This document shows positions 40,692-61,210 of a stretch of 64,000 bases of DNA, piece after piece. The stretch comes from Mustelus asterias. Taxonomy: Eukaryota. The notes beneath the pieces are model-generated. The model was not told the origin of the DNA. It did no database searches and saw only the letters and a list, made by a program, of their open reading frames with translations. Both the position numbers and the translations under genes were made by a program. The DNA is taken from NCBI RefSeq assembly GCF_964213995.1, contig NC_135816.1:61504001-61568000 (forward strand). The letters are read 5' to 3'. Position 1 is the first letter of the stretch; every line of letters begins with the position of its first letter.

Positions 40692-41734
40692 ATGGCTTTT
40701 GCAAAGCAACCAATTGATCTTGCTGTTCTTTTGGTTGCTGCTAGAGCTGAGGAGGAGGAGCTGGAGGAGGAATTGCGGGCCCAGGAGGCCCAGGCCTTAC
40801 CACTTGTGGGACCGGAGGGAGATGACCACCAGAGACAGAGGTGGCCGCCATTCACCCAGAGCGGGAGCATAGGAGAAGGAGGGAGCAGAGACCCCGGCAG
40901 TTCCGAGCACGAGTGTCCTTCGAGGAGATGTCGGACACCGTGTGCCTCCGACGTCTCCGACTCCGAAAGGATGTCGTGCGACACCTGTGCGACCTGTTGC
41001 AGACCTGGCGCCTCGGGACTTTGGGAGTCACCCACTCTCAGTGGCTGTCAGATTGACGGCCGCTCTGAACTTCTATGCGATTGGCTCCTTCCAGAGTCTG
41101 AGCGGAGATGTCTGTGGCACCTTCCATTCTTCAGTCCACACCTGTGTCAAGCAGGTCACTGATGTCCTGTATGCCCGGGCTGGGCAGTACATCAAATTCA
41201 ACCTGGACCAGGGCCATCAGGAAGCCCGGGCTGCAGGGTTCGCTGCAATTACGGGGATGCCGAATGTGCAGGGGGCCATCAACTGCACCCACGTCGCCCT
41301 CAGGGCCTCCCTACAGAATCCATGATGATTTGTTAAAAGGAAGGGGCTCCACTCTCTGAATGTACAAATCGTGTGTGACCACCCGCGTGACAGTAGAGAG
41401 GTGCATTGGGCTCCTCAAGCTGTGATTCTGGTGCCTGGACCAATCTGGAGGGGCCCTCCAGTACAGCCCCCTGATCTCCTCCCGCATAGTGGTGGTGTGC
41501 TGTGCCCTGCACAATCTGGCTCTGCAGCAAGGTGACCTCTTGGAGGAGGAAGAGGACATGGAGGATGACCAACCGGCTGTTACTGAGGAGGTTGACCAGC
41601 AGGAGGAGGAGGAAGGGGAGGAGGAGGAAGAGGACGCCTTGTTACACCAGCCAGGCGGTGGAGGGCTGACATCTCAGCTGAGGCATGCGAGGGCAGCAAG
41701 GGAGGCTCTGATAACCAGGCGGTTCAGTCGCTAG
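40692..41734 (+). pseudogene. HARBI1-like Harbinger DDE transposase, disrupted
   Basis: LTAALNFYAIGSFQ, GMPNVQGAINCTHV, RKG.HSLNVQIVCD, ERCIGLLK..F.CL, VCCALHN. Frameshifts, stops and an internal deletion. Confidence 0.9.
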
Positions 41735-47400: not shown

Positions 47401-48989
47401 GGAAATGCCTGCTTCAAAGTGGGGGGAGGCGGGGGAGGGGGGGGGAAGATTCATCCATCGTGTTGAAAAATAAATAATATCTGTGCAGAAGAAATTTTTG
47501 GCTGTGTTTGTTTCCAATTCTGTGCACATACTGTTCTAGTGTTTACTCCCTTACATCATTGCAAGTGACAGTGTAAGCAGTGGCCTAATCTGTACAGGCT
47601 TACATGTATATTTGTAACTGTGGAAGAACATTTTGTAAAAGGGAAAAAGAAACATTGGAGCCCTAGTCACTGCTATCTTTTCTTGGAGACACTAAAAAAA
47701 AAGACTTTGAAAAAAATTAATTTTAGAAACACTGAAACATTTGTGTGGATTTTGAGTAACGTTAGTCAGAGATTTAGAACTGGTGTGAAGCAACAAAAAA
47801 ATAGCTTTGGCTTTAACTGGTGCTGCACTTTAATTTATGGGACTGTCAGCAGAAAGCAATCTGGTACACTTTAGGTTTAATGTGATGTATAAGATGGTAG
47901 AATGACTCTGCCACGGGAAATAATGCCTTAGGACAGTATCAGAGCGCAATGGAGTCGAGTCATTGCATTTCTGGGCATCCTCTGACCAATGCACATCTTA
48001 TCAAAATAAAAATCTTATCAAAATATTTTGAGGATCAGGGAAGATTACTCGATGGCGAAACTTACATTTCCATCGACACAGGAGCACAGTGATTGCAATG
48101 AAGCAGATTAAAACTGAAAACACGAAAGGTCAACAGAATTGAAGAAATCAAGTTGCTAACTAGCACCCCTGATACCTGAAATAGAATCAGAGAACAAGGA
48201 ACTTCCTTTGCAAAATGAAAACCAATGTAAATTTAAGAATGTTATCTAAAAAATGGAACAAAGTGATATCCATTAAACATTACTTGGGCATGTGATCACC
48301 AAGATCCAGAGTTTTGTATCAATCATCAGAGCAAGTTAAAGATATTTGGGTCTATACCAAGTACCTCTCATGATACAATCATCTAAAATTAAGGATGCTG
48401 TACCACCCCTGCTTTATTTCTATGTAAATCAGATTTCTCTGATCACAATCTGATCTGTTTCCAAAACATTACAACCAGATTTTCAATAAATCCACCTCTG
48501 AAAGATTAGGGCAGAACTTACACCCTGACTATATCCCAGTTTTCTGGGTCGGGGGTTATTAAATATACAAAGAGTGTTCACAGTGTGGTGAACCATAGAT
48601 GGTTACCCCTATGGGTACTGAATGATGCGCGTCAATAAGCACATGGAATCAAGGCTTCGGTATTGAAGGCTTTAATAAAGTAACAAGGGAACTACTAACA
48701 CGAATACACCAGTTCAGACTGAAGGGGTCCTGCCGGAGCAGGGGGTCTTATACCCTGCCACCGGAGGCGGGACCCCACTGGAATGTGCCACGATAACTCT
48801 CATAACAGGTAAACACCCTAACCCAACAACATAGTACAACCCCCACAGTAATAACACCCTAGCCCAACAGTAACATGGTAACAAACCCCAGTGGTGAACC
48901 AACGATGGTTCACCACATTCACCCCTCCTTTAAGAACAAAAGGTGGCGGGGTGGACGAAAAACAGACAATAACAGAAAAGTCACAGGAT

Positions 48990-51900
48990 TCACAAGTCCA
49001 GACGGTCTGGAGGACCGCACCGACGCTGCGATCTCCTCAACACCGGTTGCGAAACCGGAGCAGGTGCCGATCTCTTCAACACCGGTTGCGAAAACGGAGC
49101 AGGTGCTTGTGGTGGCGCTCTTAAAGTAACGTCTGGCTGTCCCCTCAAGGACTCCCGGGCCGGCCGGCCCTGGTGAGGCGATGGTGCAGGGGATCCTGGA
49201 ACGTTTGGTGGTAGTGGTGGTGGTGATGATGATGGTGGCGCCGATCTCCGAGTCTCAGGCAAGCTGTACATGGGAGTAAAAGTGTTATGCACTGGTCCCG
49301 GTGCTGACCGCGCCACGTCTGGGGAAGTAATGAGGAGTAGTGGATTTGTGACTGGGGGAATAGGAGCGACAGGGGTTGCTACGTCCCCTGCGGGCGCCAG
49401 GTCTCTAATGGAGACAGTGTCCTCTCGCCCGTCAGGATATGCCACATAGGCATACTGAGGGTTGGCGTGGAGGAGTTGGACCGGTTCGACCAAGGGGTCG
49501 GACTTGCGAGCCCTCACATGGCGCCGCAGAAGGACGGGTCCTGGGTACGTCAACCAGGCTGGCAATGAGGTCCCCGAGGACGACTTCCGAGGGAATGAGA
49601 ACATCCTCTCGTGGGGAGTAGCATTGGTTGCCGTACACAGGAGGGAGCGGATAGCATGGAGCGCATTTGGAAGGACCTCCTGCCAACGGGAGACTGGAAG
49701 GCCCCTGGATTTCAGTGCCAGTAGGACAGCCTTCCAGACTGTAGCATTCTCCCTTTCCACCTGTCCGTTACCCCTAGGGTTGTAGCTCGTGGTTCTACTA
49801 GAGGCAATCCCGAATGAGAGCAGGAATTGCCTCAAGTCGTTGTTCATGAACGACGAGCCCCTGTCGCTATGAATATAGCAGGGGTACCCGAACAGGGTAA
49901 AAAGTTCACTGAAAACCTTGATGACGGTGGCAGTTGACGTGTCCGCACAGGGGAAAACAAACAGAAACCGGGAATACTCGTCTATTATATTGAGAAAATA
50001 GACATTCCGGTCCGTTGAGGGAAGGGGGCCCTTAAAATCCACACTCAGCCTCTCAAAAGGGCGAGTGGCCTTGACCAATTGTGCCCGGTCTGGTCGATAA
50101 AAGTGTGGTTTGCATTCTGCGCAAATCCGACAGCTTCTAGTTACTGACCTGACATCCTCCACCGAGTAGGGCAGGTTGCGGGCTTTGGTGAAGTGGTAGA
50201 GTCTGGTGACTCCAGGATGACACAGATCATTGTGGAGAGCCTTCAAGCGGTCCTCCTGCATGATGGCGCATGTTCCGCGCGAGAGGGCATCCGAGGGCTC
50301 ATTGAGCTTCCCTGGACGATACATAATATCGTAATTATAGGTGGAGAGCTCAATTCTCCACCGCAAGATCTTATCGTTCTTGATCTTGCCCCTCTGCGTG
50401 TTACTGAACATAAACGCCACGGATCGTTGATCCGTGATCAGGGTGAACCGCTTACCTGCCAGGTAATGGCGCCAGTGTCTGACTGCCTCCACAATGGCCT
50501 GAGCCTCCTTTTCCACCGCTGAGTGCCGAATTTCTGGGCCTTGAAGGGTGCGGGAAAAAAACGCGACGGGCCTGCCTGCCTGGTTTAGTGTGGCGGCTAG
50601 GGCGAAGTCAGATGCATCACTCTCCACCTGGAAAGGGATGGATTCATCCACCGCGTGCATCGTGGCTTTCGAGATGTCGCTCTTCAAAACCTTGAAGGTC
50701 AATTGGGCCTCCGGCGTAAGTGGGAAGGTCGTGGACTTAATGAGCGGACGAGCTTTGTCCGCGTAGTTGGGGACCCACTGTGCATAATATGAAAAGAACC
50801 CGAGGCATCTCCTCAGTGCCTTCGTGCTAGCGGGCAAGGGAAGTTCAGTGAGTGGGCGCATACGGTCTGGATCAGGGCCAATGACCCCGTTTTCCACCAT
50901 GTATCCGAGGATGGCTAACCTACGCGTACGGAATACGCACTTCTCCCTGTTATAGGTCAGATTCAGGCGAGATGCAGTGCGCAGAAAGTGTTGGAGATTC
51001 GTGTCGTGGTCCTGCTGGTCATGGCCACAGATGGTGACGTTATCCAGGTACGGGAAGGTAGCCCGCAACCCGTTCTGGTCCACCATTCGGTCCATAGCAC
51101 GCTGGAAGACCGAGACCCCATTGGTGACACCAAATGGAACCCTGAGGAATTGGTATAGACGACCATCCGCCTCAAAAGCCGTATATTGTCGGTCCTCTGG
51201 GCGGATGGGGAGTTGATGGTAGGCGGACTTAAGGTCTATGGTAGAAAACACTCGGTACTGCGCAATCTGATTGACCATATCAGAAATGCGCGGGAGAGGA
51301 TACGCATCCAGCTGCGTGTATCTATTAATGGTCTGACTATAGTCGATGACCATCCGAGGTTTGTTCCCGCTTTTGACTACCACGACCTGCGCTCTCCACG
51401 GACTAGCACTGGCCTGTATGATCCCTTCCTTGAGGAGCCGCTGAACCTCAGATCTAATAAAGATCCGGTCCTCAGTGCTGTAACGCCTACTTTTAGTAGC
51501 GATGGGCTTGCAGCCAGGTACCAGATTTTTAAAAAGGGATGGTGTCGTGATCTTCAGGGTGGATAAATTGCACGCGGGGCGCTTTGGGCAATTTGGAGGC
51601 TGCGGCTGATTCCCTACTGCCAGTGAAGGGAGTGGCCCACCGTACTGTAGGATCACACTCTTCATGTGGACCATAAAGTTTAGTCCGAGGAGAATTGGCG
51701 CGCAAAGGTGAGGTAGCACAAGGAGCCTGAATTGCTCGTAAACTGTGCCCTGTACCTCAAGAGTTACCATACATCGTCCTTGGATCGATACAGACCGGGA
51801 CTGTGATGCCATGGAAATTGTCTGTTTGGCAGGGAGAACCCGGAGTCCACACCTTTTAGCAGTTTCAGGGTGTATGAAACTTTCGGTGCTCCCACTGTCA

Positions 51901-52170
51901 AACAGACAATTCACAGTTCTGCCACTAACCTTTACCTCCATCATAGAATGTTCCAGTCTGTAATGCCTGGTCTGATCCAGAGAGATCGACGCCACCGTTG
52001 GCCCCTGGGCGTCACTGCATGCTGCCGATGTGGATGCTGAGGACCCCTGCTGGTCGCTGCTGCATGCTGCCGATGTGGATGCTGAGGACCCCTGCTGGTC
52101 GCTCCTAGTCGTCGTGGACCATGATGGCCGCCCCCATGAATCGCACGTGGGCGAGGGCGCCAACGCAGCG
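48990..52170 (-). CDS. Gypsy Pol (protease, RT, RNase H, integrase)
   Basis: LFDSGS, YLDN, ESDAS, HPG...C..C, VDFKGP, HSDRG, GNGQVER. Confidence 0.93.
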
Positions 52171-53068
52171 ACTCCTGGTGGTCTTCCTCCTCCTCTGTCT
52201 GCCACGATGGCGCCGTCCTGAGATCGCACGTGGTCGGACCTCGTGGGTACTGCGACGCCAAAAGAGATGGTCTCCGTTCTGGAGGGTTACAAGCTGCACT
52301 GTCGTTTTTAGGTTTGGACCTGCAGACTTTGCCGTAGTGGCCTTTTTTACCGCACTGGCTGCAGATTGCCGTTCTTGCCGGACACTGTTGCCGTGGATGC
52401 TTGGCCCCACCGCAAAAATAGCATCGCTGGCCACCTGGAGCTGCCGCCGTCGTCGAATCGATCTGGGAGCGCGGGTTCGCGGGGCGAGGAGGGAGCAGAG
52501 CTTGCTCCAACCACGTTGACTGCACGTGGTCCTCGGGGTACAGCGCCAAGCTCTTCGACGCCGCCTCCAACCTCACGGCCATCCCCATTGCCTGGGTCAA
52601 GTTGAGTTTCCCCTTTTCTAGCAATTTAAGCCTGATGTACGAGGACCCTACCCCTGCTACGAACGCGTCTCGGGCGAGGTCGTACATATACTGCTCGGCG
52701 GAGACGTCCTTACAGTCGCAACCCCTGGCAAGCTGCAGGAGCTCATTGGCATAATCCTCTATGGTTTCGCCCGACTGCCGACGTCGTGTAGCGAGGAGGT
52801 AACGAGCATGTATCTCGTTGGGTGGCATAATGTACCTATTCTTTAGGAGCTCGACGGCACCCTGGTAAGTGGGAGCTGCACGAATGGCTAGGTAAATCGT
52901 GTCGCTTACCCTCGCGTGGAGGACCTGGAGTCTATCACTGTCCATAGTGATAGCTACCGAGGCTGCCAGGTAGTCCTCAAAGCACTTCCACCAATGGTCG
53001 AATGTGTTAGCTGCACCGACCGCACGTGGGTCCAGTGTCAGACGATCCGGTTTTAGGATCTGTTCCAT
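51941..53068 (-). CDS. Gypsy Gag with two CCHC zinc knuckles
   Basis: CYFCGGAKHPRQQC and CSQCGKKGHYGKVC. Confidence 0.9.
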   Translation of the reverse strand: MEQILKPDRLTLDPRAVGAANTFDHWWKCFEDYLAASVAITMDSDRLQVLHARVSDTIYLAIRAAPTYQGAVELLKNRYIMPPNEIHARYLLATRRRQSGETIEDYANELLQLARGCDCKDVSAEQYMYDLARDAFVAGVGSSYIRLKLLEKGKLNLTQAMGMAVRLEAASKSLALYPEDHVQSTWLEQALLPPRPANPRSQIDSTTAAAPGGQRCYFCGGAKHPRQQCPARTAICSQCGKKGHYGKVCRSKPKNDSAACNPPERRPSLLASQYPRGPTTCDLRTAPSWQTEEEEDHQESLRWRPRPRAIHGGGHHGPRRLGATSRGPQHPHRQHAAATSRGPQHPHRQHAVTPRGQRWRRSLWIRPGITDWNIL

Positions 53069-53720
53069 ACTCTCTGTTTTTTCCTTCTTGTTGCACAGTT
53101 GTGAGTTTTCTGTTTACTTTATTAAATTGATGCGCGTCAATAAGCACATGGAATCAAGGCTTCGGTATTGAAGGCTTTAATAAAGTAACAAGGGAACTAC
53201 TAACACAAATACACCAGTTCAGACTGAAGGGGTCCTGCCAGAGCAGGGGGTCTTATACCCTGCCACCGGAGACGGGACCCCACTGGAATGTGCCACGATA
53301 ACTCTCATAACAGGTAAACACCCTAACCCAACAACATAGTACAACCCCCACAGTAATAACACCCTAGCCCAACAGTAACATGGTAACAAACCCCAGTGGT
53401 GAACCAACGATGGTTCACCACACTGAACCATGGATGGTTATCACTATGGGTACTTGTACATATGTTACTCTGCTTGCTGTTGGGGTTAGGGTTGGGGTGT
53501 TCTACCTGTTGGTATTGTTCTGTGGTACACTCCAGTTGGCTCCGCCTTCCTATAGGGGTATAAAGGTCACTGCACTTCCTAGTGACCCTTTAGTCTAGGA
53601 TTGTATGGTTAAGCAGTATGCTCTATTCTTGTTGCTAATACAAGCCTTTATTTCCCGAGTACGATCGAGCATCTCGAGTGAATTAATCGCGCATCACACA
53701 GTCACATCCATAGCAGCAGC

Positions 53721-60034: not shown

Positions 60035-61210
60035 AGTGGAAATGTGCTCTCAAACAGGGCACAGAGACACAAAATCAAGTTACAGAATACTGATTAGAAT
60101 GCAAATCGCTACAGCCAACCAGGTCTTAAAGATACAGACAATGCGAGTGGAGGGAGCATTAAGCACAGGTTAAAGAGATGTGTATTGTCTCCAGCCAGGA
60201 CAGCCAGTGAGATTCTGCAAGTCCAGGAGGCAAGCTGTGGGGGTTACTGATAATGTGACATAAATCCAACATCCCGGTTTAGGCCGTCCTCATGCGTGCG
60301 GAACTTGGCTATCAGTTTCTGCTCAGCGACTCTGCGCTGTCGTGTGTCATGAAGGCTGCCTTGGAGAACGCTTACCTGAAGATCAGAGGCTGAATGCCCG
60401 TGACTGCTGAAGTGCTCCCCCACAGGAAGAGAACAGTCTTGCCTGATGATTGTCGAGCGGTGTTCATTCATCCGTTGTCGTAGCGTCTGCATGGTTTCCC
60501 AATGTACCATGCCACAGGACATCCTTTCCTGCAGCGTATCAGGTAGACAATGTTGGCCAAGTTGCAAGAGTAGGTACCGTGTACCTGGTAGATGGTGTTC
60601 TCACGTGAGATGATGGCATCCATGTCGATGATCCGGCATGTCTTGCAGAGGTTGCTGTGGCAGGGTTGTGTGGTGTCGTGGTCACTGTTCTCCTGAAGGC
60701 TGGGTAGTTTGCTGCGGACAATGGTCTGTTTGAGGTTGTGCGGTCGTTTGAAGGCAAGAAGTGGGGGTGTGGGGATGGCCTTGGCGAGATGTTCGTCTTC
60801 ATCAATGACATGTTGAAGGCTCCGGAGGAGATGCCGTAGCTTCTCCGCTCCGGGGAAGTACTGGATGACGAAGGGTACTCTGTCCACCGTGTCCCGTGTT
60901 TGTCTTCTGAGGAGGTCGGTGCGGTTTTTCGCTGTGGCGCGTCGGAACTGTCGATCGATGAGTCGAGCGCCATATCCTGTTCTTATGAGGGCATCTTTCA
61001 GCGTCTGGAGGTGTCTGTTGCAATCCTCCTCATCCGAGCAGATCCTGTCTGGAGACAATACACATCTCTTTAACCTGTGCTTAATGCTCCCTCCAGTCAC
61101 ATTGTCTGTATCTTTAAGACCTGGTTGGTTGTAGAGATTCGCATTCTAATCAGTATTCTGTAACTTGATTTTGTGTCTCTGTATGCCCTGTTTGAGAGCA
61201 GATATCCACT

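Follow-up and report, generated by a model that had tools for sequence, protein, structure and literature searches.

Self-priming, in which an LTR retrotransposon primes reverse transcription with its own RNA instead of a tRNA, has been described for the Tf1/sushi group of chromoviruses (PMC4600332 and 10.1101/2022.12.06.519325, in the excerpts available). [quoted passage not shown] Self-priming has also been predicted for the plant elements Tcn1 (Gypsy) and TAR/Houba/Osr-1 (Copia), according to the available part of PMC6317226. In the literature cited here, as far as its accessible text goes, self-priming in animal Gypsy elements has so far been tied to Tf1/sushi chromoviruses.

We analyzed a window of 64,000 nucleotides, the whole stretch under study, from the shark Mustelus asterias (contig NC_135816.1, positions 61,504,001 to 61,568,000). 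It contains a Gypsy element in which the PBS is complementary to part of the element's own LTR. In the reading that we consider probable, the RNA of the element itself primes reverse transcription, most plausibly after a cut at AAA|GCC.

A young Gypsy element in a shark genome

The element lies on the minus strand and is a young Gypsy element. Its 5' LTR (53128..53422) and 3' LTR (48623..48917) are both 295 bp long, begin and end with TG...CA, and are identical at 292 of 295 positions (3 mismatches). A polypurine tract (48918..48931) precedes the 3' LTR, and the target-site duplication (TSD) TTCAG is present on both flanks (53423..53427 and 48622-48618). The gag frame (51941..53068, ATG at 53068) encodes two zinc knuckles from 52423, and the pol frame (48990..52286) encodes protease, reverse transcriptase (RT), RNase H and integrase. 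The TG...CA LTRs, the TSD, the polypurine tract and the PR-RT-RH-IN order are features of Ty3/Gypsy membership, and the best PDB match of the RT is Ty3 RT (E 1.8e-50). The Pol of 1098 aa, whose C-terminus is a proline-rich tail, gave no Chromo match with an E threshold of 0.01. The closest named relatives of Gag and Pol are from sharks and rays, followed by cnidarians, a tunicate, a nematode and an insect. A first look at the host genome gave 2401 candidate LTR/gag junctions for the family, hereafter family A, which is therefore large.

The window copy is probably broken, since gag and pol are out of frame with each other here (51941-52286, minus strand), whereas many other copies have a single frame of 1330-1390 aa. 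The catalytic motif of its RT (51050-51039, minus strand) is YLDN instead of YxDD; most loci likewise have YxDN, and among 120 Pol homologs YxDN occurs in 95 and YxDD in 23. Near-identical copies abound in the family, so the YxDN motif seems compatible with recent activity.

The element is inserted, in the opposite orientation, into a solo LTR of sister family B, whose right piece (53423..53696) and left piece (48584-48622, near the 5' end of that LTR) lie on the plus strand and which has its own TSD, CACAG. At another locus (L235), a family-A LTR is inserted in the U3 of a family-C LTR, and an insertion preference for related LTRs is possible from these uncounted cases. Elsewhere in the window, an abundant SINE-like repeat family fills the sequence, and two ORFs presumably resemble, by their motifs, a Harbinger-type transposase (40873-41734, plus strand) and a Penelope-type endonuclease region (60244-61145, minus strand).

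Pairing between the PBS and the LTR

The sequence-only reading had described a PBS complementary to the LTR over its poly(A) signal, and its coordinates are all right. The PBS (53114..53126, minus strand) is the exact 13-nt reverse complement of an LTR segment at 53176..53188. It follows the 5' LTR after a single A and lacks TGG. The paired segment, the predicted self-primer, closes with the ATTAAA hexamer (53181-53176), and the predicted cut site AAA|GCC falls between 53176 and 53175. The 49-nt loop (53127..53175) comprises the rest of R, U5 and the spacer A, and contains two predicted small hairpins. Upstream on the same strand are a TATA-like box, TATAAG (53252..53257), and an initiator-like TCAGT (53223..53227), the predicted transcription start, both found as claimed. 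The TATA-like box is 69 nt upstream of the segment and the initiator-like motif is 39 nt upstream of it, so the distance of about 35 nt proposed between this pair and the segment is correct when counted from the end of the initiator-like motif.

Assuming independent letters, the number of 13-mer matches of this kind expected by chance in this LTR is 1.6e-5, and none of 300 dinucleotide shuffles of the LTR reached 13. The helix is part of the predicted minimum free energy fold (z -2.55; 2 of 200 shuffles equally stable). Taken whole, the leader of 160 nt between TCAGT and the gag ATG has an ordinary stability (z -0.68, 42 of 200 shuffles), and the global fold energy is no evidence.

Both R copies, in the 5' and the 3' LTR, contain the paired segment. 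The earlier claim that, in cis, the helix is confined to the 5' LTR holds for the short local hairpin, whereas the 3' R copy of the same RNA could reach the PBS over a long range. In one alternative, the 3' R copy, of the same RNA or of a co-packaged one, would act as the primer, its end made by a cut at AAA|GCC or by tail trimming, and the 5' hairpin would mainly hide the poly(A) signal. Such a function has a parallel in the HIV-1 hairpin over AAUAAA, which represses 5' polyadenylation (available part of PMC2645353), and the hexamer stands at the 3' end of the segment in many related groups, as detailed below. However, the local hairpin, with a predicted mean pair probability of 0.85-0.99, would occupy the PBS. 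Taken together with the insert LTRs described below, which would most simply derive from strong-stop DNA that ended at the 5' GCC, we regard priming by the 3' R copy as improbable.

A TGG start with a match to a tRNA 3' end was found neither in the window PBS nor, as to TGG, in any PBS among the clade loci inspected. The method detects such a site when it is present: locus L165, which had appeared to be a clade member with a TGG PBS, was rejected as such, being a clade element nested in another, unrelated Gypsy element (L165:4260-11862), and that surrounding element has a normal TGG PBS. When the PBS was compared with 35 distinct tRNA-like host sequences, which cover only 10 anticodon classes, the best shared stretches were 5-7 nt. 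The tRNA genes of the host include tandem arrays with a spacing of about 1.8 kb (C16:97.26-98.64 Mb, L249-L278); tRNA-Thr prevails among the sequences sampled.

Covariation within family A

The sequence-only reading had proposed covariation within the family as a check on the helix, and the pairing indeed covaries. Among 80 distinct family-A junctions, 77 keep the pairing at the one variable site of the helix, through T:A (42, the T-state copies having been chosen by likeness to the window), G:C (7) and C:G (28); the others are C:A (2) and G:A (1). In these three unpaired copies the variant is in both LTRs and the PBS has A. In the 30 nearest copies, window included, both arms are identical. 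The G:C state was first found in copies reached through Gag. The third LTR allele, C, was first seen on the LTR side only, in contigs of four public runs compared with the LTR region, which give alleles and not RNA starts or ends. A G in the PBS was predicted from this allele and then found in 28 of 30 loci read, of 174 LTR-side matches. As the covarying copies share ancestry, the three helix states amount to about two mutational events, not 35.

Sister families and the wider clade

The complementarity is present in related copies not only across family A but also in the sister shark families B, C and D, which have their own, different PBS/LTR pairs of 13-15 bp. In family B, the 5' LTRs pair over 13-15 bp ending AATAAAA (4 of 30 loci reached gag). 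Families C and D are older, and an exact run of at least 12 is kept in only 29 of 60 loci; family D includes discordant LTR/PBS pairs in both directions (L123, L137, L140).

Relatives with an RT core 41-70% identical were found in metagenomes. Of 80 metagenome loci taken, 30 without a gag start were dropped; 39 of the remaining 50 have a pairing of at least 11 bp, against 9 of 1843 random positions. Three of the 11 loci with less than 11 bp have under 120 nt of upstream sequence. For 17 chosen families, the match of the PBS to the own LTR is 12-19 nt, whereas the match to the LTRs of other families averages 5.0 over 272 comparisons, the largest, 12, being among close sisters. The helix of L175 has 13 bp, and that of L156 contains one mismatch. 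A search of IMG/VR gave no relative.

We sorted the metagenome loci and shark families into 30 rough groups, in which C and D were merged, as were L173 and L166, which the RT tree separates. The paired segment ends at AA|RCC in 25 of the 30. In 19 groups the helix contains the hexamer AATAAA or ATTAAA, placed at the segment's 3' end; the other 11 have no canonical hexamer there, two of them having one in the loop. In the RT tree (33 rows, half of the inner branches unresolved, family B left out for too little RT sequence), the groups with the hexamer are widely spread and those lacking it occur in several places. The conserved part looks more like TAAA|RCC than like the hexamer itself. Of the 30 groups, 18 were scored with a hairpin that begins at the predicted cut, compared with a rate of 0.19 for shuffles, and none was scored in the family-A representative; a U5-end hairpin is predicted in several families.

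These comparisons also bear on whether a host RNA, such as a tRNA fragment or other small RNA, could prime, with the LTR match serving only to mask the poly(A) signal. Priming by half-tRNAs without TGG is known in Copia lineages (available part of PMC6317226), and the host tRNA set was compared in part; but the best stretches shared with it are short, the PBS follows the LTR at single sites, some thirty different PBS sequences occur, and the pairing is kept in the 11 groups that have no canonical hexamer in the helix. A host RNA primer is therefore very improbable.

The same counts concern the second task assigned to the helix, masking of the 5' poly(A) signal. Masking is possible, yet not universal, given the 11 of 30 groups whose helix lacks AATAAA/ATTAAA. 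Proximity to the cap may by itself suppress a 5' poly(A) site. Both considerations weigh against masking as a needed function, and masking as a selected second job appears rather doubtful.

Fold-back LTRs integrated in the host genome

New here is a class of fold-back LTRs integrated in the host genome, which appear to record where the self-primer RNA is cut. Five junction searches yielded 21 fold-back loci, whereas reversed control patterns gave no matches. The loci were sorted into types by reading. Three (L231, L241, L246) are whole palindromes consisting of an LTR, the PBS and an inverted R and U3, with two U3 ends and a 5-bp TSD. Their arms are identical at 185 of 194 positions in L241 and 182 of 186 in L246, and in L231 and L246 a private end change is common to both arms. 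A further locus has two ends and a deletion, with no clear TSD; nine have one U3 end intact and the other arm cut; in one, neither end is whole; and one, which has a TSD, reaches a U5 end again 38 nt further on. In two loci (L247, L350), the 5' LTR continues into gag, and a longer complement of the own R takes the place of the sequence that would follow the PBS (20 of 21 nt and 24 nt, respectively). The last four are LTRs with a 24-nt inverted insert.

For the palindromes, an assembly artefact was rejected because they end on integrase termini, have TSDs and have diverged arms. Fold-back during host replication was likewise rejected for these three, as the inverted arm ends with the LTR instead of continuing into host DNA.

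A free-gap search (8-40 nt) found six LTRs of sister family C, all six carrying an inverted insert of identical length, 24 nt, at AAAA|GCC; four of them are the insert loci of the 21-locus set. The insert equals the spacer plus the last 23 nt of U5 and matches the U5 variant of its own copy with 0-2 mismatches. All six are solo LTRs, and the TSD is readable in five.

Both the palindromic LTRs and the insert LTRs fit, in their sequence, the snap-back of reverse-transcription intermediates. In Tf1, about half of the cDNA retains a single-stranded PBS at its 3' end (excerpt of PMC11042837), which is the precursor that snap-back needs. On the simplest reading of the insert LTRs, minus-strand strong-stop DNA would have ended at GCC, folded back on the weak hairpin of the loop and been extended by copying its own 5' portion as well as the primer. 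The junction of the insert would then place the likely cut within about 2 nt, the doubt being due to the letters shared at the junction. However, a fold-back needs only a DNA end in the PBS, and pausing after the second strand transfer could also yield one. Since the insert junction lies at the end of the weak loop hairpin, structure rather than the template end could fix its position. The fold-back integrants do not prove the source of the primer. An arm ending at the initiator-like motif was found in none of the 21 loci, so these loci do not map the start site. They do make reverse-transcription intermediates readable from genome sequence alone, and they add a retrotransposon-made source of inverted repeats of 200-250 bp.

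Proposed priming mechanism

The proposal of the sequence-only reading that the element is self-primed instead of tRNA-primed is well supported by covariation within the family, by covariation across families and by the genomic fold-back products. From these sequence comparisons we consider self-priming highly probable and a cut at AAA|GCC likely. In the mechanism that we propose, the R segment would fold onto the PBS and be cut at its 3' end, with the element's RNase H as the presumed agent on the model of Tf1, leaving a 3' end one base from U5. Minus-strand strong-stop DNA would be only about 50 nt long and end at GCC. New LTRs would derive their primer segment from the 3' R. Plus-strand DNA copied across the primer would end in a PBS complementary to the own R, and this end may sometimes snap back to give the palindromic integrants.

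Where the RNA begins determines whether the primer is internal. In representatives of four shark families, the paired segment is preceded by a TATA-like box (position -69 to -74) and by a T(C/T)AGT about 30 nt after the TATA start, so that the two motifs keep a steady spacing of about 70 and 40 nt upstream of the segment. This steadiness suggests that the primer is probably internal. In sharks the RNA would likely start at TCAGT, and the primer would then carry a leader of about 37 nt, unlike that of Tf1. We somewhat favor such an internal primer, on promoter-like motifs conserved in the four shark families only.

Alternatively, a plain Tf1-type arrangement may apply, in which the priming-competent RNA begins with the paired segment or slightly ahead of it, the 5' end of that RNA is the primer and a single cut suffices. 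That mechanism has been shown in Tf1 (PMC7175516 and 10.1101/2022.12.06.519325, in the excerpts available), alternative starts are used by Tf2 (available part of PMC5341516), and a short primer gives a clean PBS copy with no 3' tail. In addition, most non-shark groups have no visible TATA; outside the shark groups, a TATA-like box turned up in L192 alone. Against it, besides the steady upstream spacing in sharks, no TATA-like hexamer is listed near -30 from the segment, and in family D and L155 G-U pairs lengthen the predicted helix on its 5' side, an extension that over 29 groups is not above shuffles. We therefore give the Tf1-type start a minor though appreciable chance.

A search for polyadenylated retrocopies of families C and D gave no matches. 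Three groups show, by eye, splice-acceptor-like TTTCAG/CTGCAG motifs some 12-13 nt ahead of the paired segment (L206, L208, L181, L207), and L207 has a possible 40-nt intron. If the RNA were spliced or trans-spliced, its 5' end would be set differently.

A second, very abundant animal clade of self-primed elements, one without a chromodomain, would imply either an independent origin of self-priming or an old trait retained outside chromoviruses. Such a clade would bear on the proposal that hairpin priming came before tRNA priming (PMC3601003, as far as its available text goes), and it would escape control by tRNA fragments. A more far-reaching synthesis can only be offered tentatively and, taken as a whole, is unlikely: a large non-chromoviral animal Gypsy clade with its own origin of self-priming, an internal primer cut at AA|RCC and a mostly YxDN RT, in which one helix would both make the primer and hide the 5' poly(A) signal, and whose snap-back errors would be inserted by integrase as palindromic LTRs, a readable record of priming in host genomes.

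Comparison with known systems

The two Gag zinc knuckles have the form C..C...H....CPA....C..C....H in 79 of 120 homologs, and the integrase tail of the shark element contains RRS.R; we take both to resemble the Mag lineage of animal Gypsy elements, as a likeness of motifs only. The RT motif of the clade was not found in the five supplementary files searched of PMC6238403, and the terms for the trait do not occur in PMC2774666. Titles and abstract openings searched contained no description of the PBS of the clade, its YxDN motif or fold-back LTR integrants, though Repbase, Dfam, GyDB, the primary Levin papers, Butler 2001 or the supplements of the preprint 10.1101/2022.12.06.519325 may carry a note of the trait.

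Tcn1 and TAR resemble the shark element in that self-priming is predicted from PBS/LTR complementarity, and the trait thus occurs in more than one superfamily. They differ in being plant lineages, Tcn1 a chromovirus and TAR a Copia element, and the available text of PMC6317226, the source for all these points, mentions no overlap with a poly(A) hexamer.

The HIV-1 polyA hairpin is similar in that a helix over AAUAAA near the RNA 5' end represses 5' polyadenylation (PMC2645353, in the part available). It lies, however, wholly in R, occurs at both ends and belongs to a tRNA-primed virus, whereas in the shark element one arm is the PBS and the local helix is specific to the 5' end.

The closest described systems are Tf1 and Tf2 of S. 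pombe, Tj1 of S. japonicus and the Tf1/sushi group, which share with the shark element the Ty3/Gypsy domain order and the lack of a tRNA PBS. In the Tf1/sushi group, as here, the PBS comes right after the 5' LTR and is complementary to an LTR segment, and in Tf1 PBS DNA can remain at the cDNA 3' end (excerpt of PMC11042837), a likeness to the snap-back precursor proposed here. Tf1/sushi elements have a chromodomain and, in the excerpts of 10.1101/2022.12.06.519325 and PMC7175516, a three-duplex 'pretzel' and, in Tf1, a primer of 11 nt formed by the extreme 5' end of the RNA. A counterpart of the pretzel duplex 3' of the PBS did not exceed shuffles in 30 groups (post-PBS sequence against loop, stem 5.6 versus 5.5 in shuffles). 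A Chromo search of the host genome gave 17 matches, with no Gypsy Pol at the five loci inspected. Lacking both the chromodomain and the pretzel, the shark element is not assigned to the Tf1/sushi group, though it would work alike. In contrast to that group, the shark clade combines the absence of a chromodomain match with an 11-19 bp helix that usually has a poly(A) hexamer and AA|RCC at its end, a hairpin located at the cut, a probably internal primer, two Gag zinc knuckles and a mostly YxDN RT.
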